From: Methanothermobacter thermautotrophicus str. Delta H
GTDB taxonomy: Archaea > Methanobacteriota > Methanobacteria > Methanobacteriales > Methanothermobacteraceae
Assembly (NCBI RefSeq): GCF_000008645.1
Contig: NC_000916.1
Span: 270,001 to 302,000, forward strand
Length of the DNA: 32,000 nt
Direction of reading: 5' to 3'
Shown here: piece after piece, positions 1 through 31,383 of the stretch
Layout: the number at the start of each line of letters is the position of its first letter
How positions within the stretch are numbered: position 1 is the stretch's first letter
The notes under the pieces: model-generated
What the model saw: only the letters and a program-made list of their open reading frames with translations
What the model was told of the DNA's origin: nothing
The model's database searches: none
Program-made: the position numbers and the translations under genes

Positions 1-1
1 A

Positions 2-1974: not shown

Positions 1975-1976
1975 GG

Positions 1977-2486: not shown

Positions 2487-2490
2487 TCCT

Positions 2491-3396: not shown

Positions 3397-3433
3397 CTCT
3401 TGATCAATCAAAACTTGATTTCTGGGTGAATCC

Positions 3434-6720: not shown

Positions 6721-6956
6721 TTTTTTGTATCTGGTAAAATCGGGCTTTGTAAAAATATAAGTGATTTTCTTTTGTTTTATTTTTGGCTTGGCTAAGGTTA
6801 GGGAGCAGTAGAATTCTTTAGGAACAAATACTGAGGATTCCTCATGTGAACTTCCATTCTACATTTAGATTAGGATTCGAAAGGAGATTATATAAACTTC
6901 AAAAAGTAATGTATCGATGATACAATCGTTTATGGGATCTTAAGGAGGAGGCGAAT

Positions 6957-8159
6957 TTGGTGAAATTCTTGGTTTTGGGTGTCAATAAAGATAACAAAGG
7001 CAATGAAGCCCTTGTGAAGTCAACCGTTGCAACAATAAAGTCCTTGATTGAAAATTGCAATTTTGTGTTTGTGGGTGTTAGAAATGAAAAGATTAAAGTT
7101 GATAATTCCTATTATTCTGTTTTAGAAAACCCCACTTATGAAATGAGTTTAAAGAAACCTTTAATGGTTTTGGGATCATTATTCCTACTTCTAAAAATTT
7201 TTCTATTTAAAAGGTTAAAAATGGAGATGAAATTTGAAAATAATATTATTTTAAAAAATATTCAGGAAGCCGATGTTTTAATTAACACTGGCGGCGACCA
7301 TCTCTCGGGGGAATATGGAAGGTCGATTATAATAACACTTGTTAATCTTCTGTACGCCATTCTCTTAGATAAACCTGTTGTATTGTACTCTGAGAGTTTG
7401 GGCTATCCTAAAAATAGATGTCTTGGATTCCTGCTAAATTATGTTCTCGAAAGGTCTTCTTTAATATTAGTAAGAGAACCCAAATCCTATGAATATCTTC
7501 AGAATAGTTTAAAATCAAAAAATTATTACCTAACAGCCGATTCGGCATTTTTATTGAATCCTTCTTCAAGGAACCAAAAAAACGAAAATGATAACCATGT
7601 CATAGGTTTTAATGTGAGCCCCTTAATAACAAATTTTGCTAAATCTCTTGATATTCTTAAACTATCCATAGATACAATCGATTTCCTCCTTAAAAACAAG
7701 AATGTGAATGTTTTACTGGTTCCCCATGTATACGGTGAGGACTCTGACCTTAAGATCCTCTCTAAAATTTATGAACATTTTGATTCAGAGAGGCTTTTAC
7801 TTATAGATAAAGAATATGATGCCGAGGAACTTAAATCAATTATAGGTCAGTGTGATCTCTTCATAGGCGCCAGGATGCATGCAACCATTGCAGCAACCTC
7901 AATGTTCGTACCCACCGTTGGGATAGCATACAGCCACAAGATGCATGGTATCATAGGCGAGATGCTAGGCCTGGAAGATTATATTATAGATATCGAGGAT
8001 CTCAACTCTGAAATCTTAATAGAGAAGACATTAAAGGCATGGGAGAACCGGGAGGAAATACAGGACCACCTCAGAAAGGTCATCCCTGAGGTTAAAATGA
8101 AAGCATGGAAGAATGGAGAGCTTGTTAAGGAACTATGCGACTCACTTGGAATCTCCTAA
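6957..8159 (+). CDS. Polysaccharide pyruvyl transferase (CsaB/WcaK-like)
   Basis: 400 aa. The motif CDLFIGARMHATIAATSMFVPTVGIAYSHKMHGI is typical of the family. AGGAGGAG lies upstream of the TTG/GTG start at 6957/6960. Confidence 0.75.
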   Translation: MVKFLVLGVNKDNKGNEALVKSTVATIKSLIENCNFVFVGVRNEKIKVDNSYYSVLENPTYEMSLKKPLMVLGSLFLLLKIFLFKRLKMEMKFENNIILKNIQEADVLINTGGDHLSGEYGRSIIITLVNLLYAILLDKPVVLYSESLGYPKNRCLGFLLNYVLERSSLILVREPKSYEYLQNSLKSKNYYLTADSAFLLNPSSRNQKNENDNHVIGFNVSPLITNFAKSLDILKLSIDTIDFLLKNKNVNVLLVPHVYGEDSDLKILSKIYEHFDSERLLLIDKEYDAEELKSIIGQCDLFIGARMHATIAATSMFVPTVGIAYSHKMHGIIGEMLGLEDYIIDIEDLNSEILIEKTLKAWENREEIQDHLRKVIPEVKMKAWKNGELVKELCDSLGIS

Positions 8160-9362
8160 AAAATCCATTCTTGCCTTTAGAGCTACAATCATAGAATAGA
8201 AAAAGATATACCTCCTTTTAATGGTCCATGGGATCTTCAACCGTGATGGTTCAAATGATAGGATGATTCTGTCAATGAAATCTATCTCAGGAAAACTCCC
8301 ATTATACATGGACCTTCTGCACAACTTTTTCTTCATGTAAATATTATATATCTGTGAGAGGAGTGCCTTTTCAGGTTTAATCTTATCCATCTCACATATA
8401 CCACCTTTCAGGATTCCGGCGAACTTCTCAGGCCATTTTCTAATGATTACAAGTGTCCTCCCTTTCTTTTCGTCTTTGAGTTCCTTGAGCCAGGGATCTG
8501 CAAAGGAGATGTCTGAGAGTTCTGCCATATGATCAGCGCATAGCCTGCATCTCTCAGGCATGAATAACTGCCCGAACCCGGATCCCCAGTACTCAGGTAG
8601 TAGTAGTAGGTCACCTGATTCTGTTTCAACCCTCAGACTCCCGGGCCAGCCCTCACCACGGTACCTTATGGACTTAACGTCCCCTGGATCAACACCAAGC
8701 CTTTCAAGGAGAAACTCCGTCGCCCTGAAACTTGGTGCATGATTGCAGACAATCCCCAGATGATAAACTATCCTCTCCCTCAGTTTTCTGCTGATCACCT
8801 CAGCCTTCCGCACCCCATGGATGTGGCAGGGCAGACCCACAACAGCGTACCTCCCCGGCACCTCAAGTATTTCTTTGAGGGCAACGTTGGCGGGTACGGG
8901 ACAGTACTTGGATCCCCTGCTCTCGATGATCTCCGAAGGCGTCCTTGCAATGAAGGGTTCAGGTTCAAGGGGCCTCTCGGGATTCATACGGGTCACAAGG
9001 GCGCCATCGATGAGGCCCTCCTCCAGTAGATAAATCAGGATCTGGCTTATCATACCACCGGAGGACGCACCATACCTGAGTTCATCATCACGGCTGTGGG
9101 CAATGTAGCACTCCTCATAATTACCCATCAGCATATCATCAGGTTCCCTTCCAAAAACCCTCATGTTGAGGTCAGTGAAGTCAACCCCCACTCCGGGGCA
9201 GACCCTCAGGCAGACACCACATCCATCACACTCACCATCAACAAGGGGTTCATAGACACCCCTATCATGATCTATTCTCATCACAACACTCTCAAGGGGG
9301 CACATCGCCGCACAGGTTCCGCAGCCAGTGCAGAGGTCCCCAACGTCGCCGACATTCTTCAT
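8142..9362 (-). CDS. FrhB/FdhB-like (coenzyme F420 hydrogenase beta-subunit family) Fe-S flavoprotein
   Basis: There are two ferredoxin-type motifs, CTGCGTCAAMCP and CDGCGVCLRVCPG. They are followed by RYGASSGGMISQILIYLLEEGLIDGALV, typical of the FrhB N-domain. Its start overlaps the stop of the upstream flippase gene (9359..10792) by 4 bp (9359-9362). Confidence 0.75.
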   Translation of the reverse strand: MKNVGDVGDLCTGCGTCAAMCPLESVVMRIDHDRGVYEPLVDGECDGCGVCLRVCPGVGVDFTDLNMRVFGREPDDMLMGNYEECYIAHSRDDELRYGASSGGMISQILIYLLEEGLIDGALVTRMNPERPLEPEPFIARTPSEIIESRGSKYCPVPANVALKEILEVPGRYAVVGLPCHIHGVRKAEVISRKLRERIVYHLGIVCNHAPSFRATEFLLERLGVDPGDVKSIRYRGEGWPGSLRVETESGDLLLLPEYWGSGFGQLFMPERCRLCADHMAELSDISFADPWLKELKDEKKGRTLVIIRKWPEKFAGILKGGICEMDKIKPEKALLSQIYNIYMKKKLCRRSMYNGSFPEIDFIDRIILSFEPSRLKIPWTIKRRYIFFYSMIVALKARMDFLGDSK

Positions 9363-13206: not shown

Positions 13207-14100
13207 CTAAATTTTCAGGTAATTCATTCCTATTGATTCCTTCTCAAGTAGCCACTTCAATTTTTTTATCTCAGCATCATCGGGGGCTGAGAAATCAGGC
13301 ATCTGGAGGTTCAGACTCCGGTACTTCTCAAGTCCCAGCCTGTGTATCCCGAGGACCTCAATGTGATCCACCATGTTCTCCCTGAGGAATCTGATGAGGG
13401 CCCGTATGTTCTCCCTGTTGAATGTGTAGGGCTTCACCGCCGGGAACCTCACTGTGAAGCTGCCATCAGAGATCCTTTCAAAGTTCCTCCTGAAAACCTC
13501 AGGGTCGCCGCCGGTGACCTCCCGGCACCCTGCATCATCCAGTATCTTCACATCAACCAGGAAGAGGTCCACCTCACCCTTTAACTTCTCAACCGCTTCG
13601 CCTGGGGCGAAGAGTGATGTTTCAACTGCTGCGGGGACTTCACCTATCCTGCGGGTGACACTGAGTATGCCATCGGCCTGGAGGAGGGGCTCACCCCCCG
13701 AGAAGGTGACACCGCCACCGGTGGAGCTGTAGTAGTCAAGGTCCCTGAGGATGACCTCTGCAACGTCATCTGCTCCTGTGAACTCACCGTAGACACCCAT
13801 CGCAGCTGAGGGGCAGCTTCCGGCGCACTCATGGTGTTCAGGGAACCTGAATATGTCCCGGGGCTTATCAAGGAAGCTGCATCTCTTCACACATTCAAGG
13901 CAGCCGATGCATTTCTCCTCTTTGAAGTAGACCTCGGGTTCTCCCCTTATATTTTCGGGGTTGCAGCACCAGGGGCACCGGAGGGTGCAGCCCTTGAGGA
14001 AAACTGTGGTCCTTATACCCGGACCATCATGGACGCTGAACCTCTGGATGCCGGTTATCAGGAGTTCATCCACTGTAACCACCATGCTCTGAGTATTCAA
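13207..14100 (-). CDS. Glycyl-radical enzyme activating protein (radical SAM)
   Basis: GIQRFSVHDGPGIRTTVFLKGCTLRCPWCCNPE carries the CX3CX2C radical-SAM motif. It also has the auxiliary ferredoxin motif CIGCLECVKRC plus ECAGSCP, and GGVTFSGGEPLLQ. The start may be ATG 14085 instead of 14100. Either start overlaps the GRE 3' end. Confidence 0.85.
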   Translation of the reverse strand: MNTQSMVVTVDELLITGIQRFSVHDGPGIRTTVFLKGCTLRCPWCCNPENIRGEPEVYFKEEKCIGCLECVKRCSFLDKPRDIFRFPEHHECAGSCPSAAMGVYGEFTGADDVAEVILRDLDYYSSTGGGVTFSGGEPLLQADGILSVTRRIGEVPAAVETSLFAPGEAVEKLKGEVDLFLVDVKILDDAGCREVTGGDPEVFRRNFERISDGSFTVRFPAVKPYTFNRENIRALIRFLRENMVDHIEVLGIHRLGLEKYRSLNLQMPDFSAPDDAEIKKLKWLLEKESIGMNYLKI

Positions 14101-15994
14101 GGGCCCTCCTGACTATTAACTCCCTGTACTCCTCTGGAAGGTCCCTGAAGTAGGCGCTGAATCCCCAGACCCTCACTATGAGGTCAGGGTAGAGTTCAGG
14201 GTTGTCCCTTGCCCGCAGGAGTACTTCAGGGTCCAGGACATTGACCTGGAGCTGCATAACACCCCTACGGAGACCTGTCCTTATGAGTGCCATGAATTCA
14301 TTCCCTGCACGGTCAAGGAATGGCCTGTCGACCATTATATCAACAACACCCCCATTGAAGGCCTTCAGGTAGTCCAGGGCTGCTGCAAAGTTTAGGACCT
14401 CGGTGTAGGACATGCCGTCAGTGAATTTAAGGGGGGAGATGTGGACGCCGAGGGGTTCACCTGCGTGTCTCCCATCAAAGGATGCCCCGGTGGATTCCCC
14501 CAGTGTTATGTAGACCGGGGAACTTAAACCGAACTTGTATCTCCCCCCGAGTTTATCATGCAGCATCTGGATGATGGTGTTTGTCAGTTCCACCACCTCA
14601 TCCTCGTCCATACCATACCCGGGAGAAATCAACTCGAGGCCCACCCTGAGTGCCTCGGCGGACCTGAAATCATCCCTGAGCACATCTTCAACCTCGGCGA
14701 TGTTCATCGTCTTCTCATCATAGCAGAGCCTCCTGATGTTGAGGAGGGAGTTTATCAGGTTCCCCATCCCCACGGTCAGCACCCCGTTGATGGAGTAGCC
14801 TGCACCATCACAGATATCCCTGGAGTTCCTGATACAGTCAGGGAAGAGGAGTGAAAGGAGGGGTGATGGTTCATTCCTGACCGACTCCACATTCTCCATA
14901 ACATCATCGATGTACCTGTGCAGCTCCTGCCGGTACCTCTCAAGCAGTTCACTGAATTCACCCCTGAACCCGTGGAGGGCATCCTCCAGGGGCTCCAGGA
15001 GGTTCAGATTTGCCAGGTTGTTCTGGTCAGAGGACCTCCCAGGGATGAGTGGCTCCCAGCAGGCAGATGTCGCGTACTCCAGGGCGTCTGATCTGCTGTA
15101 GTACTGACTGAGGGCGTCCACGATGACATCGTCATTGGAGAAGAGGGGATAACCGAGGCCCTCCCTGAGGCACCGGTAGCTGAGCTCCCATACATCATCA
15201 GGTGTTCTGCTGTTAACCCTGAGCACAACCTTGGGGTCGGGTATTCTGAGTTCCAGCATGACCTCCAGGAATATCCGTGTGAGGTCGTTGTATTCCCCTC
15301 CGAGGACAATCACCTGTCCTGTGTCCCCGGGGAGGACGTTGCTCTTGAACTCATAGCAGGAGGAGACGCTCAGGATGAAGTCCCTTATGAGTTCACGGGA
15401 CTCCTCAGGGTCCTCATGGTACTCCTTAAGGATGCTGTCGAGCCTCCCAAGGCCGATGAGGGGGTGCCCGTACATCCAGATGAGGGAATTCATGAACAGT
15501 ATTGACTGCAGTGCCTCCCCCAGGGTTTCTGCCGGCTTCAGGGGCACCCTTCTGAGTTTATCTGCGATTTCAGGTGAGTGCTCAGCGCACCTCTCAAGGT
15601 AGAGCTTAACAGCCCCCAGGGCCCTTCTGAGGATATCCGGGTAACCCCCAGGCTCATCTTCTATCATCTCCTCAATACCCTCAAGGCCCCTCTCAACCAG
15701 GAGTCCGTAGTCAGGTGTGAGGTTTCCAAGGCGCCTGTAACCCTCTGTCTCCAGGACATGGATCCCGGTGTCTATACTGTAGAAGAACCTGTCACCGGGA
15801 TTGAAATGTATGCGGGAGTCCCTGCAGACCTTCTCAAGTTGATGGAGCCTTCTTTCAAGGATGTCCTTTTTGCTGGAGCTGATTATCCTCGTTTTAATGC
15901 AACCCAGGCCCTGCTTCCGGTATAAGGCATGATAGGCCCTTAAATAGGGGAAGAACGGTGTTCTCCTTGCGATCTTCAGCATGGTGTTCTTCAT
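14066..15994 (-). CDS. Compact glycyl-radical enzyme (PFL-superfamily; substrate unknown)
   Basis: The C-terminus LQVNVLDPEVLLRARDNPELYPDLIVRVWGFSAYF parallels the PflB glycyl-radical region (Gly611, codon 14162-14164). The Cys loop is TSACWEP (Cys312, codon 15059-15061). The conserved strand FDGRHAGEPLGVHISP is present. The protein is 642 aa. Confidence 0.8.
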   Translation of the reverse strand: MKNTMLKIARRTPFFPYLRAYHALYRKQGLGCIKTRIISSSKKDILERRLHQLEKVCRDSRIHFNPGDRFFYSIDTGIHVLETEGYRRLGNLTPDYGLLVERGLEGIEEMIEDEPGGYPDILRRALGAVKLYLERCAEHSPEIADKLRRVPLKPAETLGEALQSILFMNSLIWMYGHPLIGLGRLDSILKEYHEDPEESRELIRDFILSVSSCYEFKSNVLPGDTGQVIVLGGEYNDLTRIFLEVMLELRIPDPKVVLRVNSRTPDDVWELSYRCLREGLGYPLFSNDDVIVDALSQYYSRSDALEYATSACWEPLIPGRSSDQNNLANLNLLEPLEDALHGFRGEFSELLERYRQELHRYIDDVMENVESVRNEPSPLLSLLFPDCIRNSRDICDGAGYSINGVLTVGMGNLINSLLNIRRLCYDEKTMNIAEVEDVLRDDFRSAEALRVGLELISPGYGMDEDEVVELTNTIIQMLHDKLGGRYKFGLSSPVYITLGESTGASFDGRHAGEPLGVHISPLKFTDGMSYTEVLNFAAALDYLKAFNGGVVDIMVDRPFLDRAGNEFMALIRTGLRRGVMQLQVNVLDPEVLLRARDNPELYPDLIVRVWGFSAYFRDLPEEYRELIVRRALEYSEHGGYSG

Positions 15995-18449: not shown

Positions 18450-19040
18450 ATGGACTTAATAAAGATCGTGTCCTGCCTTGAGGAGGGCAACATCATCCAC
18501 TGCGGCGGGAACATCAGGGACACCTACCATGAACTCAGTGAAAGGGCAGAGGAACTCAACCTCCAAGCCGCCCTGGTCTACCTGGTATCACCCATGCCCC
18601 TCAAGGCAGGCCTCCTGGAGATAATGAGGGCCCATGACCCCGGTGCACAGGAGAAGCTTACCATCACAGAGATAATGACGGCCATAGCATCCCTCGAGAG
18701 GGAGACCTGGGTCTTCATGGACCACTTCGAGGACCTCACAGGGAAGGCGGCAGGCAAGTACCTCTGGCTACACACCCACGGGAGGGTGAAGTACATGGCC
18801 GGCCTCACCGGGACCTTCAGGGGTGAGGTCCAGTCCTTCTACTCAACCTTCAGGAAGCTCAACCCATCAAGGTGCCTGGATGGTGACTCAGTAGACGTTA
18901 CGGTCACGGTGATGGCCCTCATATCAGTCTTTGCCTCACTCTGCTACCTGAGGGCGGGTCTGGAGTACGGTATTCTTGTAACGAGCACGATCTGGTTTGC
19001 CCTCATAGTCTTCAGGACAATCAACTACATTGTAAGGTGA
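18450..19040 (+). CDS. Hypothetical protein with C-terminal transmembrane segments
   Basis: 196 aa. The N-terminal two-thirds is soluble. Two hydrophobic stretches follow (VTVTVMALISVFASLCYL, ILVTSTIWFALIVF). I recognise no family. Confidence 0.55.
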   Translation: MDLIKIVSCLEEGNIIHCGGNIRDTYHELSERAEELNLQAALVYLVSPMPLKAGLLEIMRAHDPGAQEKLTITEIMTAIASLERETWVFMDHFEDLTGKAAGKYLWLHTHGRVKYMAGLTGTFRGEVQSFYSTFRKLNPSRCLDGDSVDVTVTVMALISVFASLCYLRAGLEYGILVTSTIWFALIVFRTINYIVR

Positions 19041-19045
19041 AATAG

Positions 19046-19636
19046 GTGAAGTTAAGGACTCATGTAACAGCTGCAGTCGTTCTCTTCCTCCTGATCAACT
19101 TCCTGTACCCTGTAACGACAATCATCAAAGGGGCCCTCCTCGCCGGGGCTGCGGGTACAGTCCCTGACCTCCTGGATTACCTCACAGGGAGGCACAGGGG
19201 CATCGGACACACACTCCTAATTTTACCACCCCTTCTACTCTATTCACTGAAGAGTCCGGAGAACGGGGTCCCGCTCCTTGCTGGAATCACATCCCACATT
19301 CTCCTGGATCTCTTCACGGTCCATGGATGCCCCCTGCTCTACCCCCTCAAGGACACACCCTACCACTGCCTCCAGAGGAAGAAGAGGATAAAGACAGGGA
19401 CAGCCGGTGAGTGGGCCCTCCTATCATTCCTCATAGCCGTCACGGTGGTCACATCCCTGGTCTCGGCGGGCGCACCCGATGATGCACTCCACCCCCAGCT
19501 CAGCAACAGCAGCAGGGAGGGGCAGTGCAGGACCATGAGTGTGGACATCCAGGTTGATGCGGACAGGGACGTCAACGTGACCTCCTACCACACCAATGGC
19601 TCAGAGAGCATCTTCGTGGACTTCAAGGATGATTGA
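19046..19636 (+). CDS. Membrane-bound metal-dependent hydrolase, YdjM/DUF457-like
   Basis: GTG start. DLLDYLTGRHRGIGHTLL and ITSHILLDLFTVHGCPLLYPL match the DUF457 His/Asp motifs embedded in TM helices. Confidence 0.6.
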   Translation: MKLRTHVTAAVVLFLLINFLYPVTTIIKGALLAGAAGTVPDLLDYLTGRHRGIGHTLLILPPLLLYSLKSPENGVPLLAGITSHILLDLFTVHGCPLLYPLKDTPYHCLQRKKRIKTGTAGEWALLSFLIAVTVVTSLVSAGAPDDALHPQLSNSSREGQCRTMSVDIQVDADRDVNVTSYHTNGSESIFVDFKDD

Positions 19637-19729
19637 AAACTAACACTTTTTAATACATTTATTACTGGAGTAAATAATCAAAAACTTTTTATTATCAAAT
19701 AAGTAATACTATTTCTGCAATTTAATCAT

Positions 19730-19738
19730 GGAGGTGAT
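19730..19738 (+). promoter_or_regulatory. Shine-Dalgarno site GGAGGTGAT for the CobN-like gene
   Basis: It is a perfect complement to the canonical 16S 3' end (AUCACCUCC). The GGAGG core ends 7 nt before ATG 19742. Confidence 0.65.
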
Positions 19739-19741
19739 TGG

Positions 19742-22700
19742 ATGGAAGGCATCAGAGTAATACTTATGGCAGTGTTCCTGGTCTTTGTCCTGCCGGGAAC
19801 GGTGAGTGCAGAGAACACAGCAGACAACGGGACAGTGGATGTTCTTGTGATACACTCCATTGAGGGTACCAGGGTCGTGAATGATGCAGCCCACCGGGTC
19901 CTCGAGGAGTACCCTGACAGGAACATCACAGTGAGGGTCAGAAGCTCACCCCAGATAGTTAACTCCACACCGGAGGAGATAGAGGCCCTCCTCAACTCAT
20001 CCGACGTTATAATATGCAACTACCTGGGGACAGATGACTATACAAAGATACTGAGGGTCCTGACAGATAAACCAGAGATCCTGAATGGCAAATTTTTCGC
20101 ACTCTTTGACGGTGCAAGCGGAATCGAGCTTGTGAGGATGAGCAGGATAAATGATACGCAGGTTTTCAGTGGCGTCCCTGACACCGTGGTGACTGCGGTG
20201 AGCAGGGCCCTGAGGGTCCTCGAGCCACTCCCATTCCTCGAAGGCTACGTAAACCAGTACCCCCAGATAGCCATCTGGGCCCAGGGTGAAGGATACTACT
20301 GCTACAGGAACGTGGAGAGCTACAGGAACCAGATACTATGGGCTGCCGATACATGGGCACGTACAAGGAACATCACACTGAACGTGACCTATGGTCCTCC
20401 AAGGGCCGTTTCAAGGGAACTGCTCTACCGTGACGGAAAACTCTACGATAACCTCACTGATTACCTCAGGGACTACCCCATCGACCCATCAAGACCAACG
20501 GTCGGCCTGATAGAGGCAGAAAGTAACATGCTCGGAGGTGGCGCAGCGCACATAGACATGCTCATAGACAGACTGAAGGACACCCTCAACATAATCTCGG
20601 TGGTTGCAAGGTACGGTGATAACGCCTACTCTGCAATGGTGAGGTTCTTCACCACGGCACCGAATATTGCTGCATTCGAGGCAAACAGGACCCTCTACAC
20701 ATCACGTGTGGAGGCCATTGTATCATTCAGCACCTACCTCCTCGGGGGGACATCATCAGAGAAGGTTAACAGCCTCCTCAAGTTCATGAACGTCCCGGTA
20801 CTGAGGGGGGTCGTGGTGAACACAAGGACCGTTGATGACTGGCTCGTCTCCAGTGATGGTGTCACACCATGGAGCAGGGATGACATAATGGGACAGGCAG
20901 GCTTCCCGGAGACCCAGGGCCTCATAGAACCCATAATCATCGCTGCAGCAGAATTCCAGGCCGATAACATCACAGGGGCATACACATACTCCTACTCACC
21001 ATTACCTGACAGAATAGAGAAACTGGCGCAGAGACTCATAAACTGGGTCAACCTGAGAATAAAACCAGAATCAGAGAAGAAGATAGCCATAATCTACTAC
21101 AACTACCCCCCAGGAAAATCAGAGATCGGTGCAAGCTACCTCAACGTACCAGAGAGCATATATGAAATCCTTCTGAACCTCCGGGCCAGCGGCTACAGCG
21201 CAGGTAACATCTCAGGCGCAGCTGAACTCATAGGCCTCATGGTTGAGAGGGGGATAAACATTGCAAACTGGGCCCCCGGCGAACTCGAGAGACTGGCAGA
21301 TACCCCGGGTGTCGTACTGTGGGATGCAGAGGAATATCAGGCATGGTTCCAGACCCTCAACCCCATCGCAAGGAGATACGTCACAGAGGGCCCCACGGCA
21401 TACATTGAGGAGCTGGTGAAGCTGGCCCTCAGCAGAGGTACCAGCGCAGTCACACTGATGAAGACAGTGGACACATGGTACGCTGAGATGAAGGACAACA
21501 TAAAATCATCTGAGAAACAGGTGGAGGGACTTCAGCTCCTTGAGGTCATGTACACCGCACTCAGGGGAGTAATAAATGGCAACTCCAGCATGTGGACCAC
21601 ATTCAGGGCGGCCAGGGAGTCATTCATGTTACTTGCCATACCCGGACTCTGCGGGTGGGGTGAGGCCCCTGGCAACGTCATGACGGTTACAAGGAACGGC
21701 CGGAAGTACATCGTCATACCCGGATTCATCCTTGGAAACGTCTTCATAGGGCCCCAGCCCCAGCGTGGATGGGAGGCCGACCCTGAAATGCTGTACAGTG
21801 TTGGCATACTGCCTCCACACCACCAGTACCTCGCATACTATGCATGGATAAACAGGGTCTTCAATGCCAGTGCAATGATACACATGGGTACAATGGGAAG
21901 CTACGAGTGGCTGCCCGGGAAGGAGGTGATGCTATCAGAATATGACTTCCCGGACATTGTCGTCGATACAACACCATCCATATACATATACCGCGTTGAT
22001 AACGCCGCCGATGGACTTGCAGCAAAGAGGAGGGGCCTTGCAGTTATAATAGACCACCTGACACCTGCAATGAAATCAACGACCCTGTACGGCGAACTCC
22101 TCCAGCTCAAAAACCTCATAACAGGCTACAAGAATGCAGCGGATGATCCGCTCAGGAACCAGTACCTTGCAGAGATAAGAACAGCGGCACTCAAAGCAAA
22201 GCTCGGGGATGAACTGGGCCTCAACATTGAAAACACGACAGCCGATGCACTCATACCTGCAATATCATCATATCTCCTGAAGATTGAGGGCACCCTCATA
22301 CCCTACGGTTTACACACCTTTGGAAGGGAATGGAGCCATGAGGCCATTACCTACATGGTGGCCTCAATGATCTCAACCGGTGACACATCCATCTACCGCT
22401 TACTGGCAGCAGATTATGGATGGATCTACGAGGAAATCACAGTTGATCAGCGAATGATACTGGAGAACAGGACACTTGAAATGATCCAGGCCCTCTTAAA
22501 CGGCTCGAAACCAGAGAACATCACGTCCTCACCGGACATCATTGCAGTGCTCCGGAGCGCAGCAGAGTACATTGAACTCATCAGGAACAGCACCAGGATG
22601 GAGATGTCATCCCTCCTCAACGCACTCGCAGGGGGCTACGTGGAGCCGGGACTCGGTAAGGAGCCCCTGATGAACCCATCAGCACTGCCCACAGGGAGGA

Positions 22701-24427
22701 ACTTCTACACAATAGATCCAAGCATAGTGCCCACATCAGCGGCCTACAGTCTGGGAGCAGAGATAGTGAGGAAGGTCCTCGCCACCTACACCGAGCCTCC
22801 AGAGAAGCTTGCAGTGGTAATCTGGGGAGTGGACACAGCAAGGGACGACGGGGCCATGGTCGGATTCGTCCTGAACCTCCTCGGTGTGAAGCCGATATGG
22901 AGCAGCTCAGGACAGGTGACAGGCGTGACACTGATACCGCTGAGTGAACTCGGAAGACCAAGAATAGACGCCGTGGTCACAGTGAGCGGACTCTTCAGGG
23001 ACGTCTATGGACAGGCAGCCGTAACAATGGACAGGGCCTTCCGCCTGGCTCTTGCGGCATCCTACCGCACAGTACTCACAGAGCACCCCGAGGTTTCAGA
23101 GGCCCTTGAGGCAGCCGTCAAACCCCTCAGAGCTGTTAAACTCTTCCAGGAGGGAAATGACCCCATCCAGATGAACAGGGTGGCAGGGCACTGGCTTGAA
23201 CTTGTCCTCAAATACATGAACGCCGGTATGAATGCATCAACAGCAGGTAACCTTGCAATATACAGGATATTCGCTCCACCCATGGGATCATATGGTACAG
23301 GGGTCAAGGAGGCAGGTGAGATGTCCTGGACCTACAATAACACGGATGAACTCGCAGATCTTTTCATAAGCCGCATGGGCACATCATATTCCGAGACGGG
23401 ATGGGGTGTTAAGAACGTCGACCTCTTCGCGGACCTCCTGAAAGGTGTATCAGCGGTCTACCAGGGAAGAAGCACATACCTCGTTGGTGTGGCAGAGAAC
23501 GATGACATGGCAGACTACCTTGGAGGATTATCACTGGCCATAAAGAAACTCACAGGAACTGCGCCATCAGTCAACATCATAACAACAGCAGCAGGAAACC
23601 CCCAGTTAATGTCACTGCAGGAGGCACTGGCCCTTGATATGAGGTCAAGGTACCTTAACCCTGAATATGTGAGATCACTCATCTCTGAGGGCTATGCTGG
23701 TGCCAACAGATTATCAACCGCAGTGCGATCCATATGGTTATGGCAGACCACGGCACCCGGAAGTGTTCCCTCATGGACATGGGATGCGCTCGCCGACACA
23801 TACATAAGGGATGTTAATGGGCTGGGTGTCAGGGACTGGCTTTCAGGCAGGAACTCCTATGCACTGATAAGCATAACCGGTACAATGCTCACAGCTGCAT
23901 ATGAGGGCCACTGGAATCCTGATGAGGCCACCCTGCGACTGCTTGCATCAACATGGGCATCACTGACAGCCGAGAACGGTGTAGCCTGCTGTGACTGCAG
24001 CTGCGGTAACATAGCAATGATGCAGTGGACCATGCAGTACCTCAACCCGGATCTTCTCTCAAGGGTCAGGGAGAAACTCTACGCTGCCACCAGGAGCTCA
24101 GCATTCGCACCAGCCTCAGATGGAGGATCCACACCAGGAGTCCCATCAAATCCAGGAACAGTGACTCCAGGAACATCAGAGAACCATGATGGAGGATCAG
24201 CACACTCCACAGGATCCTCAAGGAGAGCCACAAGCCCCGAAACAGAAACAGAGTCGTCAGACACTTCTCCAGGTGAGACAGGTACCGGCAGCGCCTATGA
24301 GGTCACTGAGAAGGGAGGAACTGTGCAGGCGAAAACAGGTCTCCCGGTAGCAGCCATACTGGGTGTTGTTGTCCTCGTTGCCCTTGTGGGTGTTGGATAC
24401 TTCATTGGAGGGAAGGGGAGGATCTGA
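19742..24427 (+). CDS. CobN/Mg-chelatase-H-family protein with N-terminal signal peptide and C-terminal Ser/Thr/Pro/Gly-rich linker plus TM anchor
   Basis: 1561 aa. CobN-type motifs are ALAGGYVEPGLGKEPLMNPSALPTGRNFYTIDPSIVPT, GLHTFGREW and VIWGVDTARDDG. The signal-like N-terminus is MEGIRVILMAVFLVFVLPGTVSA/EN. The C-terminal anchor is GLPVAAILGVVVLVALVGVGYFIGGKGRI. Confidence 0.8.
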   Translation: MEGIRVILMAVFLVFVLPGTVSAENTADNGTVDVLVIHSIEGTRVVNDAAHRVLEEYPDRNITVRVRSSPQIVNSTPEEIEALLNSSDVIICNYLGTDDYTKILRVLTDKPEILNGKFFALFDGASGIELVRMSRINDTQVFSGVPDTVVTAVSRALRVLEPLPFLEGYVNQYPQIAIWAQGEGYYCYRNVESYRNQILWAADTWARTRNITLNVTYGPPRAVSRELLYRDGKLYDNLTDYLRDYPIDPSRPTVGLIEAESNMLGGGAAHIDMLIDRLKDTLNIISVVARYGDNAYSAMVRFFTTAPNIAAFEANRTLYTSRVEAIVSFSTYLLGGTSSEKVNSLLKFMNVPVLRGVVVNTRTVDDWLVSSDGVTPWSRDDIMGQAGFPETQGLIEPIIIAAAEFQADNITGAYTYSYSPLPDRIEKLAQRLINWVNLRIKPESEKKIAIIYYNYPPGKSEIGASYLNVPESIYEILLNLRASGYSAGNISGAAELIGLMVERGINIANWAPGELERLADTPGVVLWDAEEYQAWFQTLNPIARRYVTEGPTAYIEELVKLALSRGTSAVTLMKTVDTWYAEMKDNIKSSEKQVEGLQLLEVMYTALRGVINGNSSMWTTFRAARESFMLLAIPGLCGWGEAPGNVMTVTRNGRKYIVIPGFILGNVFIGPQPQRGWEADPEMLYSVGILPPHHQYLAYYAWINRVFNASAMIHMGTMGSYEWLPGKEVMLSEYDFPDIVVDTTPSIYIYRVDNAADGLAAKRRGLAVIIDHLTPAMKSTTLYGELLQLKNLITGYKNAADDPLRNQYLAEIRTAALKAKLGDELGLNIENTTADALIPAISSYLLKIEGTLIPYGLHTFGREWSHEAITYMVASMISTGDTSIYRLLAADYGWIYEEITVDQRMILENRTLEMIQALLNGSKPENITSSPDIIAVLRSAAEYIELIRNSTRMEMSSLLNALAGGYVEPGLGKEPLMNPSALPTGRNFYTIDPSIVPTSAAYSLGAEIVRKVLATYTEPPEKLAVVIWGVDTARDDGAMVGFVLNLLGVKPIWSSSGQVTGVTLIPLSELGRPRIDAVVTVSGLFRDVYGQAAVTMDRAFRLALAASYRTVLTEHPEVSEALEAAVKPLRAVKLFQEGNDPIQMNRVAGHWLELVLKYMNAGMNASTAGNLAIYRIFAPPMGSYGTGVKEAGEMSWTYNNTDELADLFISRMGTSYSETGWGVKNVDLFADLLKGVSAVYQGRSTYLVGVAENDDMADYLGGLSLAIKKLTGTAPSVNIITTAAGNPQLMSLQEALALDMRSRYLNPEYVRSLISEGYAGANRLSTAVRSIWLWQTTAPGSVPSWTWDALADTYIRDVNGLGVRDWLSGRNSYALISITGTMLTAAYEGHWNPDEATLRLLASTWASLTAENGVACCDCSCGNIAMMQWTMQYLNPDLLSRVREKLYAATRSSAFAPASDGGSTPGVPSNPGTVTPGTSENHDGGSAHSTGSSRRATSPETETESSDTSPGETGTGSAYEVTEKGGTVQAKTGLPVAAILGVVVLVALVGVGYFIGGKGRI

Positions 24428-24583: not shown

Positions 24584-24979
24584 TCAGGGGTTTATTTGCT
24601 TCTTCACTGACAGGTCCTCTAGAACATCCTCATAGTCCCTCCGCCAGGGAGGGGAGACTATGCAAAGGAATGAGAGCTCCGACTTCCCGGTGTTCTCAAT
24701 GTACTGGACAGCACCGGAGGGTATATGGATGGCGTCACCCTCCTTCACTGTGAATGACTCATCATCGATGTGCATGGTGGCCTCACCCTCCATGATGTAG
24801 TAGACCTCCACTGATTCCCTCAGACGGTGGGGCTTCGAGGCCTCACCTCTCCTGAGGATGGCATGGGCCAGGCTGAAGCCCATATCCAGGCCCTCATTGT
24901 CCGGGTGCAGGAGCTCACAGAGGAGGGTCCCGTCAGCGGCCCTGAAATAATCGCACTCCCTGATATTCCTTATGTTCAT
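24584..24979 (-). CDS. Cupin-domain protein
   Basis: 131 aa. The cupin motifs are HRLRESVEVYYIMEGEATMHIDDESFTVKEGDAIHIPSGAVQYIENTG. GAGGT lies 7 nt upstream of the ATG. Confidence 0.75.
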   Translation of the reverse strand: MNIRNIRECDYFRAADGTLLCELLHPDNEGLDMGFSLAHAILRRGEASKPHRLRESVEVYYIMEGEATMHIDDESFTVKEGDAIHIPSGAVQYIENTGKSELSFLCIVSPPWRRDYEDVLEDLSVKKQINP

Positions 24980-25073
24980 TGCCGGTACCTCATAGAGTTC
25001 ACATGTAAAGGTCCTTTTTAAGCCGGGTCATTGCCGGTACCTCATAGAGTTCACATGTAAAAGTCCTTTTTAA
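24976..25073. repeat. Tandem duplication: two 46-bp copies, period 52 bp
   Basis: 24976-25021 and 25028-25073 differ at one position (25010 G versus 25062 A). Copy 1 holds the cupin start codon. Copy 2 holds the stop and last codons of 25051..25689. Confidence 0.9.
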
Positions 25074-25689
25074 CCCTCCGGGCCTCCCATGGCTTTCCCT
25101 GGGGGTGGTGGATGTAGTCTGCACTTAGAACTATACGACCATTCTCTGACCTCAGGGTGAAGTTCCCACCGAAGAACGTCTCAACCCCGTTTATCCTGAA
25201 GTCCCCCTTAAAGGTCCTGCCGTCGTTGCTGAAGTTCCCGCCACCGTCCCAGGCAGCGCAGGTCATCCTGTAGTGACCCCTCAGCGGTGTGCTGAACATT
25301 GCAGACTTCAGGTCACCCCTGAGGAGTAGGTAGATCGTGTTCCAGGTGACGTCGATGTGGTCTATGTGTCCGGTGCCGCTCAGACCGCTCTCATTGTAAC
25401 ATATGGGTGTACCGTTGACCTCATGGGTGTCGAAGTTCTCAGCCCCCGGGAGGACTATGCTGAAATTGAAGTCTCTCCCGGTACCGTTTATGGAGTAGTA
25501 TCCTCCAAGTGAAGCCTCCCCCGCCTTATTTGAGGGTATGGATGTGTAGGATGTGTAACTGTAGGGTATCTGTGAGAATATGGCCTCATCAAAGAACTCA
25601 ACTGCAAGTACAGGGGCCCCGACAGCCACCACAACTACGGCCATGATTATGAGCACTCTCCTGTCCATTAAATTCCTCCATTCTGTCAT
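25051..25689 (-). CDS. Exported or membrane-anchored hypothetical protein
   Basis: 212 aa. The N-terminal hydrophobic anchor is RRVLIIMAVVVVAVGAPVLAV. There are six N-x-S/T sequons. ATG 25668 is an alternative start, preceded by GGAGGA with a 5-nt spacer. Confidence 0.6.
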   Translation of the reverse strand: MTEWRNLMDRRVLIIMAVVVVAVGAPVLAVEFFDEAIFSQIPYSYTSYTSIPSNKAGEASLGGYYSINGTGRDFNFSIVLPGAENFDTHEVNGTPICYNESGLSGTGHIDHIDVTWNTIYLLLRGDLKSAMFSTPLRGHYRMTCAAWDGGGNFSNDGRTFKGDFRINGVETFFGGNFTLRSENGRIVLSADYIHHPQGKPWEARRVKKDFYM

Positions 25690-29175: not shown

Positions 29176-31383
29176 TTAAAATGGCAGTTCCGCGTAGTAG
29201 CCCTTTATACTGGCGCTCTTCCAGTTCTTTATGACTCCAAGGGAGTTCATGTTGCTTGATGCGTCAGCGTTAACCCAGGAACCATTTATGTAGAGCTGTG
29301 CCCAGACATGGCCGTAGGTGTTCCCTGAGACGAATGTGCATGTGGCATGCACATACCTGGCTGCTATGCCTGAGGCCCTTGAAAGGGCAACCAGGAGGTG
29401 TGTTATGTCAACACAGTTTCCTGTCCTGTTTTTGAGTGTGCCCACTGCACCGTACCTGGTGTTGTAGTAGAAGCTGTAGTCTATGTTGTCACGCACCCAG
29501 TTGAATATCGCTGTCGCCCTGGCAGTAACTGAGGTCAGACCCCTGGTGATGCTTGCTGCAAGGGATCTTATCTCTGTACTTGTAACCTGGCAGTTCGCTG
29601 TTGAGGCCAGGTAGCTGCCTGAGAATATGGAACTGTCAACCGTGACATAGTTGGGGAGCCTTCCATTATCCTCCTGGAATGCCACAACCTTTGACAGGCT
29701 GTAGAGGAGGACGTTGAAGCTCAGGGGCCCTGCACTGGATGATATCTGTGACGGCGCAGTGCCTGTTGATGACATGTAGCTCAGGACCTGTGACGCGATC
29801 TGCAGGTACTCATCCTTCTGGATTGTCCCTGAAGCCTTAAGGGTTGTGGCTGATGGTTCACTGAAGGATCCAGGTACAGGATCCTTACCTGTGAGGAACT
29901 CTGCCAGCAGGTAGAGGAATCCGGCGGGTGTAACCTGACTCTCACCGAGGCTAACATAATTGGGGAGCCTGTAATTTGACTCAACGAATGCCTTAACCCT
30001 GCTGGCGGCATCCATGATCATCGATGCGGTGATTGAATTTTCAGCAGACGGCTTTGTTGTTGCGGATGGTATCCCACCCAGAAAGTCTTTATCGATCAAC
30101 CCGTACCTGAAGAGGGCGTATCCGTCGGCTCCTCCACGGAGGGCTGAATCTATATCTCCCCTGAGCTCATCTGCAGGTATGGGCGTCACATCACTGTCGG
30201 ATCTGTAGGTCTGAAGTCCGGTCCACACCTGTGCACCGGGGCTCCTGGCCTTGATGTAGGCAGTTACATTCTGTATCCATGAGGAATCCTCCCGGTAGTT
30301 ACCCTTGTAGACCATCGGCACAAGGACGTCCAGATACTCTGCAAGCTGGGTGTAGTTCTGGCCATAGTAGTAGGCATTTGATCCCTTCTCTGGCATCAGG
30401 GCAGCCGACAGTAGAAGCCCGGGGTTAACAGATTTAACGGCTTCACTGATCCTCCTGACTATCCCTGTTATGGTTGCTGTTGAGTTGGGCACCTGGTATG
30501 CGTTTCCAGGGTACCGGATATAGTCGAGGTGGATACCACCAACCCCTGGAATGCTGGTGTATGATAGCACCCTCCGGGTGAGGTTATCAATGAACTGCTC
30601 TGCATAGCTTGTGTTGTAGCCGTATCTTGTCTCTGTACTGGTAACCGTCTTTGTAACTGTCCTGTACTTTATGGTGTAACGTGTCTCCTTGACGTACCTG
30701 TAGGAGGTTTTCTTAACGTAGCGGTACTTCCAGGTGTATCTCCACTTACCCCTGTACTTGTACCATGACTTGTACCACTTCTTCACATAGGTTGTGTAGG
30801 CCTTCTTCACTGTTACAGTGTAATAGTACTTGTAGGGTTCCTTGACTGTGACCTTGCTGGTGGTTGTAACATTGTAGGCGTACCTGCCGGTTGGGTCAAC
30901 CCATTTGCCGTTAGCATCCTTGAGGCAGATGACCCAGGCACTCACCCTTATACCCTGGGCTGAAGTGTTACCGAGGAATGAGGTGAGGTTTGCTCTGAAG
31001 CGTTCATCATTGAAGGCCAGCTGCTCAAGGAAAACATCAGATATACCCTTACCTTTGAGTTCACTGAGGTTGACCTTTCCCATGTCATAGGCCTTGACCC
31101 AGATGGCGCCGTGTGCCTGTTCTGTTGTTGTGTTTTCCTGTGTTTGTGTTGTGTTCTGCTCTGCTGTTTCTGTTGTGTTTTCCGTTGTTGTGTTTGTGTT
31201 CTGGGCCTCCATATCCTCTGTGCTGCTGTCTGCCATTTCAACGGCAGACGCCACATTTGAGCCCATGAATGAAAGCACCAGAACAAGGGCTATTAGAATG
31301 TTCAGCTTTCTCGAAATTTTACCGCCTCCACTGGGGCTAAAAACCCCATGTAGACTCTTAAAAAGGCCTTTATATATAAACAT
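29176..31383 (-). CDS. Exported multidomain protein: Thr/Asn/Glu/Gln-rich linker, glycoside-hydrolase-like TIM-barrel region, two pseudomurein-binding-repeat-like segments, C-terminal transglutaminase-like cysteine peptidase core
   Basis: Signal-like KLNILIALVLVLSFMGSNVASA. GGIHLDYIRYPG is a GHL-type TIM-barrel motif. The repeat-like segments are ASRVKAFVESNYRLPNYVSLGESQVTPAGFLYLL and LSKVVAFQEDNGRLPNYVTV. The peptidase core is GNCVDITHLLVALSRASGIAARYV...GHVWAQLYINGSWVNADAS (Cys657/His692/Asp706). The start is uncertain, because TTTATATATAAAGG (a TATA-box consensus) directly follows ATG 31383 and a GGAGG lies further downstream. Confidence 0.7.
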   Translation of the reverse strand: MFIYKGLFKSLHGVFSPSGGGKISRKLNILIALVLVLSFMGSNVASAVEMADSSTEDMEAQNTNTTTENTTETAEQNTTQTQENTTTEQAHGAIWVKAYDMGKVNLSELKGKGISDVFLEQLAFNDERFRANLTSFLGNTSAQGIRVSAWVICLKDANGKWVDPTGRYAYNVTTTSKVTVKEPYKYYYTVTVKKAYTTYVKKWYKSWYKYRGKWRYTWKYRYVKKTSYRYVKETRYTIKYRTVTKTVTSTETRYGYNTSYAEQFIDNLTRRVLSYTSIPGVGGIHLDYIRYPGNAYQVPNSTATITGIVRRISEAVKSVNPGLLLSAALMPEKGSNAYYYGQNYTQLAEYLDVLVPMVYKGNYREDSSWIQNVTAYIKARSPGAQVWTGLQTYRSDSDVTPIPADELRGDIDSALRGGADGYALFRYGLIDKDFLGGIPSATTKPSAENSITASMIMDAASRVKAFVESNYRLPNYVSLGESQVTPAGFLYLLAEFLTGKDPVPGSFSEPSATTLKASGTIQKDEYLQIASQVLSYMSSTGTAPSQISSSAGPLSFNVLLYSLSKVVAFQEDNGRLPNYVTVDSSIFSGSYLASTANCQVTSTEIRSLAASITRGLTSVTARATAIFNWVRDNIDYSFYYNTRYGAVGTLKNRTGNCVDITHLLVALSRASGIAARYVHATCTFVSGNTYGHVWAQLYINGSWVNADASSNMNSLGVIKNWKSASIKGYYAELPF

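Follow-up and report, generated by a model that had tools for sequence, protein, structure and literature searches.

What would a protein with the fold of a cytoplasmic, ATP-driven metal chelatase do on the outside of a methanogen? The question is raised by a gene for a 1561-amino-acid (aa) CobN-like protein within a 32,000-nucleotide stretch of Methanothermobacter thermautotrophicus str. Delta H (NC_000916.1, positions 270,001 to 302,000, forward strand; referred to here as 'the window', with nucleotides counted from its first letter). A preliminary description, made from the sequence alone, had proposed that this protein is exported and membrane-tethered rather than a cytoplasmic chelatase driven by ATP and AAA+ partners, and that it would need another function, such as tetrapyrrole or metal capture. 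The core of that prediction is supported by the signal peptides and transmembrane helices that recur across the protein's clade and by the precedent of the bacterial CobN homologues HmuS and BtuS. We favour, with moderate confidence, the explanation that it is an exported, tethered and probably N-glycosylated surface protein that has kept the chelatase fold as a non-catalytic or altered binder or receptor for metal-tetrapyrroles or metals, possibly in the service of an active paralogue.

19742-24427, + strand: coding sequence of the predicted exported, 1561-aa CobN-superfamily protein; ATG start; precursor of 170.6 kDa, pI about 5.0

An extracytoplasmic branch of the CobN superfamily

We assigned the protein to the CobN superfamily by its Pfam match (PF02514, CobN-Mg_chel; E = 1.6e-263, 877.7 bits vs. 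a cut-off of 24.5), and found it below the cut-off of all nine NCBIfam equivalogs (among them NF004645, 761.6 vs. 1619; TIGR02257, 480.8 vs. 822; and TIGR02025, 608.7 vs. 829). The CobN/ChlH motifs that had been noticed in this open reading frame (ORF), LPTGRNFYTIDP and GLHTFG, both fall in conserved columns. Structure prediction, suggested earlier as a check, returned a class-I chelatase: AlphaFold2 (AF2) modelled residues 24-640 with a predicted local distance difference test score (pLDDT) of 86 and residues 600-1561 with a pLDDT of 76, high over 780-1450, and Foldseek ranked HmuS (PDB 9d26) as the top match to the body (template modelling score 0.72), followed by CobN (0.69) and ChlH (0.67). 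With both models, HmuS, ChlH and CobN were the only matches at E <= 1e-10, the N-terminal half corresponding to their N-terminal parts, and the six-domain head/neck/body fold of class-I chelatases is present.

19811-21661, + strand: head, neck and first part of the body, residues 24-640 (AF2 pLDDT 86; 12 of the 20 sequons); the Pfam CobN domain begins at about residue 185
21662-23977, + strand: chelatase body, domains III-VI with the central tetrapyrrole cleft, residues 641-1412 (from Pfam/NCBIfam, PDB matches and Foldseek)
22307-22324, + strand: GLHTFG motif, residues 856-861, conserved columns
22685-22720, + strand: LPTGRNFYTIDP motif, residues 982-993, conserved face of the domain-V cleft (from the alignment)

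A phylogeny against cytoplasmic CobNs, likewise suggested, set the protein apart from them. The 69 homologues formed two groups: the canonical CobNs (about 1250 aa, lacking signal peptide and transmembrane helix, ending ...LEIEGxxE), and one large exported clade of archaeal and bacterial proteins that includes the CobN-like protein and is marked by a signal peptide, a GV.CC[DH][CH][ST]CGN extension, a low-complexity linker, YE[VM], a transmembrane helix and a basic tail. Fused surface domains are frequent in this clade (CARDB, Big_1/2, PQQ propeller and CarboxypepD_reg), and both the signal peptide and the transmembrane helix occur in 116 of the 215 nearest relatives. When a profile of the exported Methanobacteriales-type clade was run against the PDB, HmuS came first (5e-202), with an alignment that reached the C-terminal extension. 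Tree, motifs and fold thus place the protein in an extracytoplasmic branch of the CobN superfamily.

Of this branch, only HmuS and BtuS, which are ATP-independent haem de-chelatases, have been characterised. Membrane-bound and with helices at both its termini, the CobN homologue HmuS of Bacteroides thetaiotaomicron, solved by cryo-EM (PDB 9d26), strips iron from haem in the absence of ATP (PMC12583661); the HmuS of P. gingivalis, expressed in E. coli, was located at the inner membrane with periplasmic exposure (PMC13227078); and a prediction from 2018 has B. fragilis export BtuS1 and BtuS2 and anchor them so that they face the periplasm (PMC6460266). An exported, ATP-independent protein with the CobN fold is therefore a known concept in Bacteroidota, on record since 2018 and with a structure since 2025. 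In the literature searched, we found no earlier description of an exported or glycosylated archaeal CobN; the CobN listed in the Haloferax glycoproteome is the cytosolic one only.

Within the branch, the gene is a Methanothermobacter-specific orphan paralogue. Its orthogroup is a single cluster among 1.84 billion cluster representatives, and the next relative is just 48% identical; the members of its 90% cluster come from M. thermautotrophicus, and relatives at 76-83% identity from M. marburgensis and from the strains K4, KEPCO, CaT2 and THM-2. Database names within the orthogroup are "cobaltochelatase subunit CobN", "magnesium chelatase subunit" or hypothetical.

Export signal, tether and membrane anchor

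19637-19741, + strand: intergenic region, AT-rich with TATA-like stretches and the Shine-Dalgarno sequence GGAGGTGAT (read from the sequence)
19742-19810, + strand: predicted Sec-type signal peptide, residues 1-23, predicted cleavage VSA/EN (hydropathy)
23978-24091, + strand: C-terminal extension specific to the exported clade, residues 1413-1450; a Cys-rich motif, then ordered helices
24092-24340, + strand: Ser/Thr/Pro/Gly/Glu-rich tether, residues 1451-1533, mostly predicted disordered and fast-evolving
24341-24412, + strand: single C-terminal transmembrane helix, about residues 1534-1557; G1541, L1548, G1550, G1552 and Y1553 conserved
24413-24427, + strand: short basic tail KGRI, predicted cytoplasmic, residues 1558-1561, and stop codon (from the sequence)

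The classical signal peptide that had been read from the N-terminus, MEGIRVILMAVFLVFVLPGTVSA/EN, is there in all its elements: behind a short n-region comes a hydrophobic core of 12 residues, then Pro-Gly as a helix breaker and finally V-S-A, which occupies positions -3 to -1 ahead of Glu-24. Orthologues and paralogues likewise begin with a hydrophobic stretch that closes on small residues and often runs straight into N-x-T. Instead of being cleaved, the segment could be retained as an anchor, by analogy with what has been proposed for HmuS. A mis-called start lacking a signal peptide, which the preliminary description named as a finding that would speak against export, was rejected: a perfect Shine-Dalgarno sequence lies at 19730-19738, 3 nucleotides 5' of the ATG, and there is no in-frame start upstream (the ORF listing opens at the first start codon after a stop), both of which make such an error unlikely. 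The AT-rich spacer of 105 bp that holds this sequence is probably the gene's own promoter and leader; scans for sigma-70 promoters and terminators around the gene returned chance-level results only, and the window held no Rfam/riboswitch or other RNA element.

At the other end, the single transmembrane helix and basic KGRI tail described earlier are both present: the whole protein has just two hydrophobic segments, residues 1-25 and 1527-1559, and AF2 modelled a single helix at 1536-1555. The Ser/Thr/Pro/Gly/Glu linker ahead of it, put at about 100 aa, also exists (these residues make up 58% of 1426-1526 vs. 34% protein-wide), although its disordered part (residues about 1459-1535, pLDDT about 25) is closer to 80 aa; near the membrane it carries a conserved YEV motif (1519-1521) in which Glu-1520 is invariant. 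A Pfam match to Podoplanin (18 bits, cut-off 30) was rejected as reflecting just the mucin-like linker and helix, and a short C-terminal fragment returned nothing useful against the PDB. Taken together, these predictions support export and membrane tethering with the bulk of the protein outside the cytoplasm.

Between body and tether lies the Cys-rich motif GVACCDCSCGN (residues 1413-1423, nucleotides 23978-24010), in which C1416 and C1421 are invariant and shared with HmuS. The general form of this motif occurs only in CobNs of the exported clade, just beyond the point where the cytoplasmic CobNs end, and the HmuS paper does not discuss it, two of its Cys residues being present in HmuS. Its role may be to hand over metal or to form a disulfide.

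The catalytic dyad is replaced under purifying selection

21881-21898, + strand: degenerate catalytic motif HMGTMG, residues 714-719, the equivalent of HFGTHG in HmuS
22010-22012, + strand: Asp-757 (GAT), replacing the catalytic Glu (ChlH E660, HmuS Glu-577; from alignments)
23498-23506, + strand: N-D-D, residues 1253-1255, of the VAENDDMADYLGG motif (from alignments to HmuS and ChlH)

We asked, as had been suggested, whether the CobN substrate and metal-binding residues are conserved, and the answer was divided: the domain-V cleft and Glu-722 are kept, but the catalytic His and Glu have become Met-718 and Asp-757. In alignments, Met-718 (ATG, 21893-21895) stands in place of the catalytic His (HmuS His-538, ChlH H621), a residue essential in HmuS, where H538A is inactive (PMC12583661); both ChlH H621 and E660 are described as essential, and the ChlH numbering was confirmed by the PDB titles of the E660D, E660W and E625K variants. 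At the third catalytic position, Asp-1255 aligns with ChlH H1174 and HmuS His-1209, which is the CobN-type DxDD state rather than that of HmuS or ChlH.

This replacement is confined to the orthogroup. The motif could be located in 175 relatives, of which 168 have His at the catalytic position. Met stands there in this orthogroup only (Tyr in two other proteins and Arg in one, each of them with one or more export features), and the Met/Asp pair is found nowhere else; the His/Glu dyad is present in 143 of the 143 non-orthogroup relatives that have the catalytic His and a locatable Glu position. Conservation in the other 65 homologues reaches 90% or more at 80 sites, and the orthogroup deviates at only six of these (N193S, H686 variable, H718M, E757D, W1198Y and W1309Y). 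The equivalent of position 757 is Glu in all 65, and position 686, a conserved His elsewhere, is S, N, N or T in the four orthologues. Glu-722 (ChlH E625), the domain-V cleft motifs (with P983, T984, G985, N987, F988 and Y989), C1416 and C1421, Glu-1520 and several residues of the transmembrane helix are invariant in the clade alignment.

The orthogroup is under strong purifying selection despite the replaced dyad: the ratio of nonsynonymous to synonymous substitution rates (dN/dS) is 0.12-0.16 over head, neck and body (0.12-0.13 in the body) vs. 0.42-0.43 in the linker. Such a pattern is in keeping with a paralogue whose ligand cleft and membrane-proximal elements have been preserved and whose standard chemistry has been lost or changed. 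We found no description in the literature searched of such a silenced dyad under purifying selection, and regard it as new.

How the protein compares with named chelatases

HmuS, the best PDB match, has in common with the CobN-like protein the six-domain fold, an N-terminal export or anchor segment, a C-terminal transmembrane helix with the bulk outside the cytoplasm (a prediction for the CobN-like protein), a C-terminal extension with two invariant Cys (C-x4-C), and a way of working that needs no ATP or AAA+ partner. It differs in much of its active equipment. HmuS His-538, Glu-577 and His-1209 are Met, Asp and Asp in the CobN-like protein; the HmuS motif LSLDHxxEFMGG (His-1209, Glu-1212) corresponds to VAENDDMADYLGG, with Asp-1255 for the His and Asp for the Glu; the site-1 haem ligand His-254 (HGR) aligns with the Thr in ...VSFSTYLLGG..., and the region of the other site-1 ligand, Met-79, could not be aligned. 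The Met-rich insertion of about 120 residues in domain IV of HmuS is absent, HmuS 710-911 being represented by about 40 residues that are not Met-rich. HmuS is encoded in an hmuYRSTUV operon, unlike the CobN-like gene (in the window and in the orthologous loci L001 and L003), and the host here is an archaeon which, unlike HmuS hosts, has neither an outer membrane nor haem metabolism; the CobN-like protein in turn has the many N-glycosylation sequons and a long Ser/Thr/Pro-rich tether. An assignment as HmuS proper was rejected, since four HmuS-defining features are absent.

BtuS1 and BtuS2 are likewise membrane-attached CobN homologues predicted to be exported and implicated in extracytoplasmic metal-tetrapyrrole salvage (PMC6460266), and a Methanosarcina homologue (P0042) bears the SEED name 'CobN-like chelatase BtuS for metalloporphyrine salvage'; BtuS1 and BtuS2 are, however, linked to Fe and haem through hmu-type operons, and the CobN-like gene has neither that context nor the catalytic dyad. 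Closest in build are the exported paralogues of Methanobacteriales and Firmicutes (P0005-P0015, 39-47% identical), which share the signal peptide, Cys motif, tether, YEV and transmembrane residues, have the CobN-type DNDD motif too and, in their archaeal members, are dense in sequons; unlike the CobN-like protein, they keep the catalytic His and Glu (HxGRHAT ... EG). Canonical CobN (PDB 7c6o, 9uk9) and ChlH/BchH (PDB 4zhj) share the fold, the Pfam family and the Glu matching ChlH E625, and canonical CobN also has Asp at the third catalytic position, but these proteins are soluble, cytoplasmic, about 1250-1350 aa long, driven by AAA+/vWA partners and ATP, intact in His and Glu, and devoid of signal peptide, Cys-rich extension, tether and transmembrane helix.

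Sequon enrichment and predicted glycosylation

A recount of N-x-S/T sequons (x not P) gave exactly the 20 that had been reported, against 10.5 ± 2.8 in composition-preserving shuffles (about 3.4 sd above). We used as an internal control for enrichment in secreted proteins a surface protein of the same window (735 aa, 29176-31383, - strand), which has three pseudomurein-binding repeats and a transglutaminase-like core and holds 15 sequons vs. 7.5 expected; the window's other predicted secreted protein holds 6 vs. 1.7 expected, and its cytoplasmic proteins are at or below expectation. The sequon Asn lies in predicted coil in 16 of 20 cases (vs. 28 of 54 other Asn), and an orthologue at 79% identity still has 15 of the 20, six of these with an altered middle residue or an S/T swap. 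Across the family, sequons per 100 aa number 0.8-2.7 in archaeal exported proteins, 0-0.3 in bacterial exported ones and 0-0.5 in cytoplasmic CobNs, densities that serve as a further internal control and fit N-glycosylation of an exposed archaeal protein. The CobN-like protein is thus probably N-glycosylated at many of its 20 surface-loop sequons, as judged from these counts. The adjacent glycan operons might, as proposed earlier, supply those glycans; no oligosaccharyltransferase is encoded in the window.

Active-looking paralogues often sit beside a proton-channel module, in some loci with metal-uptake genes

The genes around other exported CobNs are informative about what the clade may do. 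P0009 of M. thermautotrophicus, which is 42% identical and has kept the dyad, lies behind genes for nicotianamine synthase and a 970-aa FmdE-domain protein and ahead of a triad of DUF2162, MotA/ExbB and DUF2149 genes. The same triad adjoins P0008 and flanks P0005 and P0007 (each with a second, shorter exported CobN in tandem) and the bacterial P0023; at the P0006 locus the genes immediately after it encode CbiM, a PDGLE-domain protein, CbiQ and an ABC ATPase, which we take to be a Co/Ni importer of the energy-coupling factor (ECF) type, as CbiMNQO/NikMNQO. P0011 has CbiM and an FmdE-domain protein nearby and no triad; none of all these genes was found near P0013, P0024 and P0042. Triad-flanked exported CobNs thus occur in both archaea and bacteria, some of the latter named as Firmicutes, and in many of their loci a shorter exported CobN stands in tandem as a second copy.

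L002, 5807-16890: triad-flanked CobN locus with intact dyad, with nicotianamine synthase and FmdE genes
L008, 309-7337: triad-flanked CobN locus with intact dyad
L009, 7001-16471: triad-flanked CobN locus with intact dyad, with Co/Ni importer
L012, 485-12060: triad-flanked CobN locus with intact dyad
L011, 528-11725: triad-flanked CobN locus with intact dyad
L007, 5382-10993: triad-flanked CobN locus with intact dyad

In the hmu operon, HmuU is a MotA/ExbB protein, HmuV a DUF2149 protein and HmuT a hypothetical membrane protein (PMC13227078). On this correspondence, the triad looks like an equivalent of HmuTUV. Firmicutes and archaea have no outer membrane, and the ExbB-like module can therefore not be powering a TonB-dependent receptor there. 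We infer that the paralogue clade may parallel HmuS plus FeoB but for Ni/Co, with the proton-channel module in place of the AAA+ motor; the gene contexts suggest that the triad-linked paralogues could form a system for extracytoplasmic Ni/Co salvage coupled to the proton motive force (PMF). We found no description of such a system of triad-linked exported CobNs in the literature searched. What is new here is that the protein's relatives in the clade are linked by gene context to ExbB-type and Co/Ni-uptake genes, a connection for which we likewise found no description.

The triad is absent from all three orthologue loci of the CobN-like gene itself (the window, L001 and L003; a search of genome contigs gave one extra orthologue locus), and the gene in the window also lacks nicotianamine synthase, FmdE-domain and CbiM(N)QO neighbours. 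An orthogroup member (WBF08442.1) and the triad-linked paralogue P0009 (CP064337.1) nevertheless appear to be in the same genome, to judge by contigs of equal length (1,758,798 bp). Expression data bear on the paralogues: in M. marburgensis, nickel limitation raises CobN1 (D9PVN3, 143 kDa) about 300-fold, along with NikR1 and transporters (PMC12350162). We rejected this induction as expression evidence for the CobN-like protein, since CobN1 is a 143-kDa paralogue and not the orthogroup's protein.

Weighing the explanations

Under the explanation we favour, the protein would be exported by the Sec pathway through its N-terminal signal peptide, and its ectodomain (about 165 kDa, comprising the whole of the head/neck/body fold) would lie under or within the pseudomurein wall, held by the disordered tether of ~80 residues, one transmembrane helix and a short basic cytoplasmic tail. 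There it would have abandoned standard metal insertion or removal and would serve, outside the cell, to bind, receive or hand over metal-tetrapyrroles or their metals. Its partner might be the catalytic paralogue that is linked to ExbB and encoded at another place in the genome. For this organism the most plausible ligands are Ni or Co compounds, F430-type or corrinoid.

Several points weigh against this explanation. A Ni/Co-tetrapyrrole ligand would follow from physiology and from the paralogue contexts and not from the gene's own envelope and glycan neighbourhood, and the Ni-limitation proteomes of M. marburgensis list CobN1-3 (143, 164 and 146 kDa), none of ~170 kDa (PMC12350162). In KEPCO-1 (P0230/P0233) and THM-2 (P0241/P0003) the orthologue falls into two ORFs whose ends are frameshifted, so that some lineages may be losing the gene or able to do without it; the splitting may be a sequencing error or artefact or a genuine decay, and pseudogenisation would imply that the gene is dispensable in culture. 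Finally, Met and Asp could themselves still bind metal or take part in acid/base chemistry, the intact Glu-722 and whole domain-V cleft leave room for a modified (de)chelatase chemistry, and strong purifying selection suits an enzyme as well as a binding protein.

These last points lead to the alternative that Met-718/Asp-757 is a functional variant of the dyad, for example one tuned to a softer metal (Ni, Co) or a different tetrapyrrole, in an extracytoplasmic (de)chelatase that is still active and draws its energy in trans from the paralogue's triad. It would account for the selection on the body and for the 74 of 80 highly conserved sites that are kept, Glu-722 and the domain-V cleft included; the Glu to Asp change is conservative, the conserved YEV and the G/L/G/Y pattern of the transmembrane helix could dock to a membrane partner, and a triad-linked paralogue appears to be at hand in the same genome. 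Yet HmuS H538A is inactive, ChlH H621 and E660 are described as essential, all 143 comparable relatives outside the orthogroup retain the dyad, the third His (686) is under no visible constraint in the four orthologues, which is what a loss of catalysis would lead one to expect, and no transporter or triad lies nearby in the three orthologue loci. We hold an active variant to be possible but rather unlikely.

A bolder extension, which we think doubtful, would make the exported archaeal and monoderm CobN clade the outer part of a hitherto unrecognised metal-mining machine, in which the DUF2162-ExbB-DUF2149 triad, as a PMF motor, replaces the AAA+ motor and the CobN-like protein is a glycosylated, silenced receptor. 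The motor would act through a TonB-like tether and the conserved transmembrane helix, Ni/Co would be stripped from environmental tetrapyrroles (F430 or corrinoid debris) for CbiMNQO-type importers, and the CobN-like protein would be the counterpart of a haemophore, capturing ligand at the wall and handing it to the active paralogue; the ExbB-like module could not have the role drawn for HmuUV, that of powering an outer-membrane receptor, because archaea and Firmicutes have no outer membrane. The likeness to TonB is an analogy only: both combine one transmembrane helix, a Pro-rich extended spacer and a globular extracytoplasmic domain, and members of the CobN family are encoded beside an ExbB-type proton channel, but there is no sequence or fold relationship, the polarity is inverted (a C-terminal anchor), and the ExbB-like coupling is hypothetical.

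Less probable still is a purely structural envelope glycoprotein that has kept the chelatase fold, has no role with tetrapyrroles or metals and was recruited into a wall and glycan island as a scaffold. Its neighbours (genes for glycan biosynthesis and a pseudomurein-binding surface protein), the loss of the dyad, the long tether, the many sequons and the disruption in two strains all suit this proposal, but a mere scaffold would have no need of conserved buried cleft residues, Cys and domain-V motifs, or of a dN/dS of about 0.13.

The tripartite C-terminus had also been likened to a sorting or anchor signal, and only the anchor half of that comparison held. Linker, helix and basic tail are laid out as in PGF-CTERM-type signals, which could suggest cleavage by an archaeosortase-like enzyme that leaves the protein linked to lipid or wall. 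However, with a threshold as loose as E <= 10, no NCBIfam sorting-signal model matched the final 51 or 110 residues (their sole match was to the tail of an NCBIfam CobN subfamily model), there is no PGF, PEF or VPXXXP motif ahead of the helix (the motif there is ...TGLP...), bacterial homologues share the same C-terminal layout, and the transmembrane residues are conserved as in a functional helix, all of which makes cleavage very improbable.

To the annotated role, that of a cytoplasmic CobN of an ATP-dependent cobaltochelatase or the H subunit of a Mg/Ni chelatase in cofactor biosynthesis, we give almost no credence, its high-scoring Pfam and NCBIfam CobN matches and database names notwithstanding, given the scores below every equivalog cut-off, the signal peptide and C-terminal anchor, the grouping with the exported clade, the replaced catalytic His and Glu, the lack of an AAA+/vWA partner nearby and the anaerobic, early-insertion CbiX route of B12 synthesis in Methanothermobacter (PMC3087415).

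Genomic neighbourhood

18450-19636, + strand: two upstream genes, a 196-aa membrane protein and a 196-aa YdjM-family membrane protein (synteny, 3 of 3 orthologue loci)
24584-24979, - strand: small cupin
25051-25689, - strand: sequon-rich secreted protein of 212 aa
25737-26630, - strand: alpha/beta hydrolase, probably exported

Consistent with what had been noted earlier, no CobS/CobT or ChlI/ChlD partner, nor any other AAA+/vWA partner, was found among the 23 ORFs of the window or in the orthologous locus L001, and the adjoining genes do concern glycans and the cell envelope: glycosyltransferases, flippases, UDP-galactopyranose mutase, an F420-type FrhB protein and the pseudomurein-binding-repeat protein. 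The block of 196-aa membrane protein, YdjM-family protein and CobN-like gene, then cupin, secreted protein of ~210 aa and alpha/beta hydrolase, is also present in two other Methanothermobacter species, the downstream trio thus being kept in three. A functional link of the two upstream genes to the CobN-like gene is possible. Neither the upstream 196-aa protein nor the downstream 212-aa secreted protein had a family match, even at E <= 1. The alpha/beta hydrolase gave a partial Pfam match to Chlorophyllase (2.5e-9) and weak BchO-like matches, from which it is tempting to propose a role as a tetrapyrrole esterase.

Three further observations concern the rest of the window. A glycyl-radical enzyme (PFL-like and Gly_radical, 642 aa) and its radical-SAM activase (13207-15994, - strand) lie within a polysaccharide-biosynthesis cluster, flanked by UDP-galactopyranose mutase and a Wzx-type flippase, an unusual place for such an enzyme in a methanogen. 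A polysaccharide pyruvyl transferase gene stands tail-to-tail with one for an FrhB/FdhB-like F420-binding iron-sulfur protein (6957-9362), a pairing also seen in L001. Positions 1-8000 have 32-45% GC vs. about 52% in the remainder and encode a DegT aminotransferase, GT4 glycosyltransferases, a GNAT protein, a DUF2206 membrane protein and a pyruvyl transferase; this low GC suggests a horizontally acquired island of glycan genes.

Implications

The name "cobaltochelatase subunit CobN" is very likely wrong for this orthogroup, and the label is unsuited to reconstructions of the B12 pathway. The authors of the HmuS structure remarked that the use Archaea make of their many HmuS/CobN/ChlH homologues is unclear (PMC12583661), and the archaeal proteins of the extracytoplasmic branch, predicted to be surface-exposed, tethered and probably glycosylated, give that question a concrete shape. 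Most archaeal members of the branch adjoin an ExbB-type module, and at least one a Co/Ni ECF importer, which suggests PMF-coupled extracellular metal salvage. Within it, the dyad-replaced paralogue of Methanothermobacter is a natural "dead-site" variant that can be compared with an active-looking sibling in a genetically tractable methanogen. Since Ni and Co supply limits methanogenesis, extracellular scavenging of this kind would matter both for the physiology of methanogens and for biogas practice.

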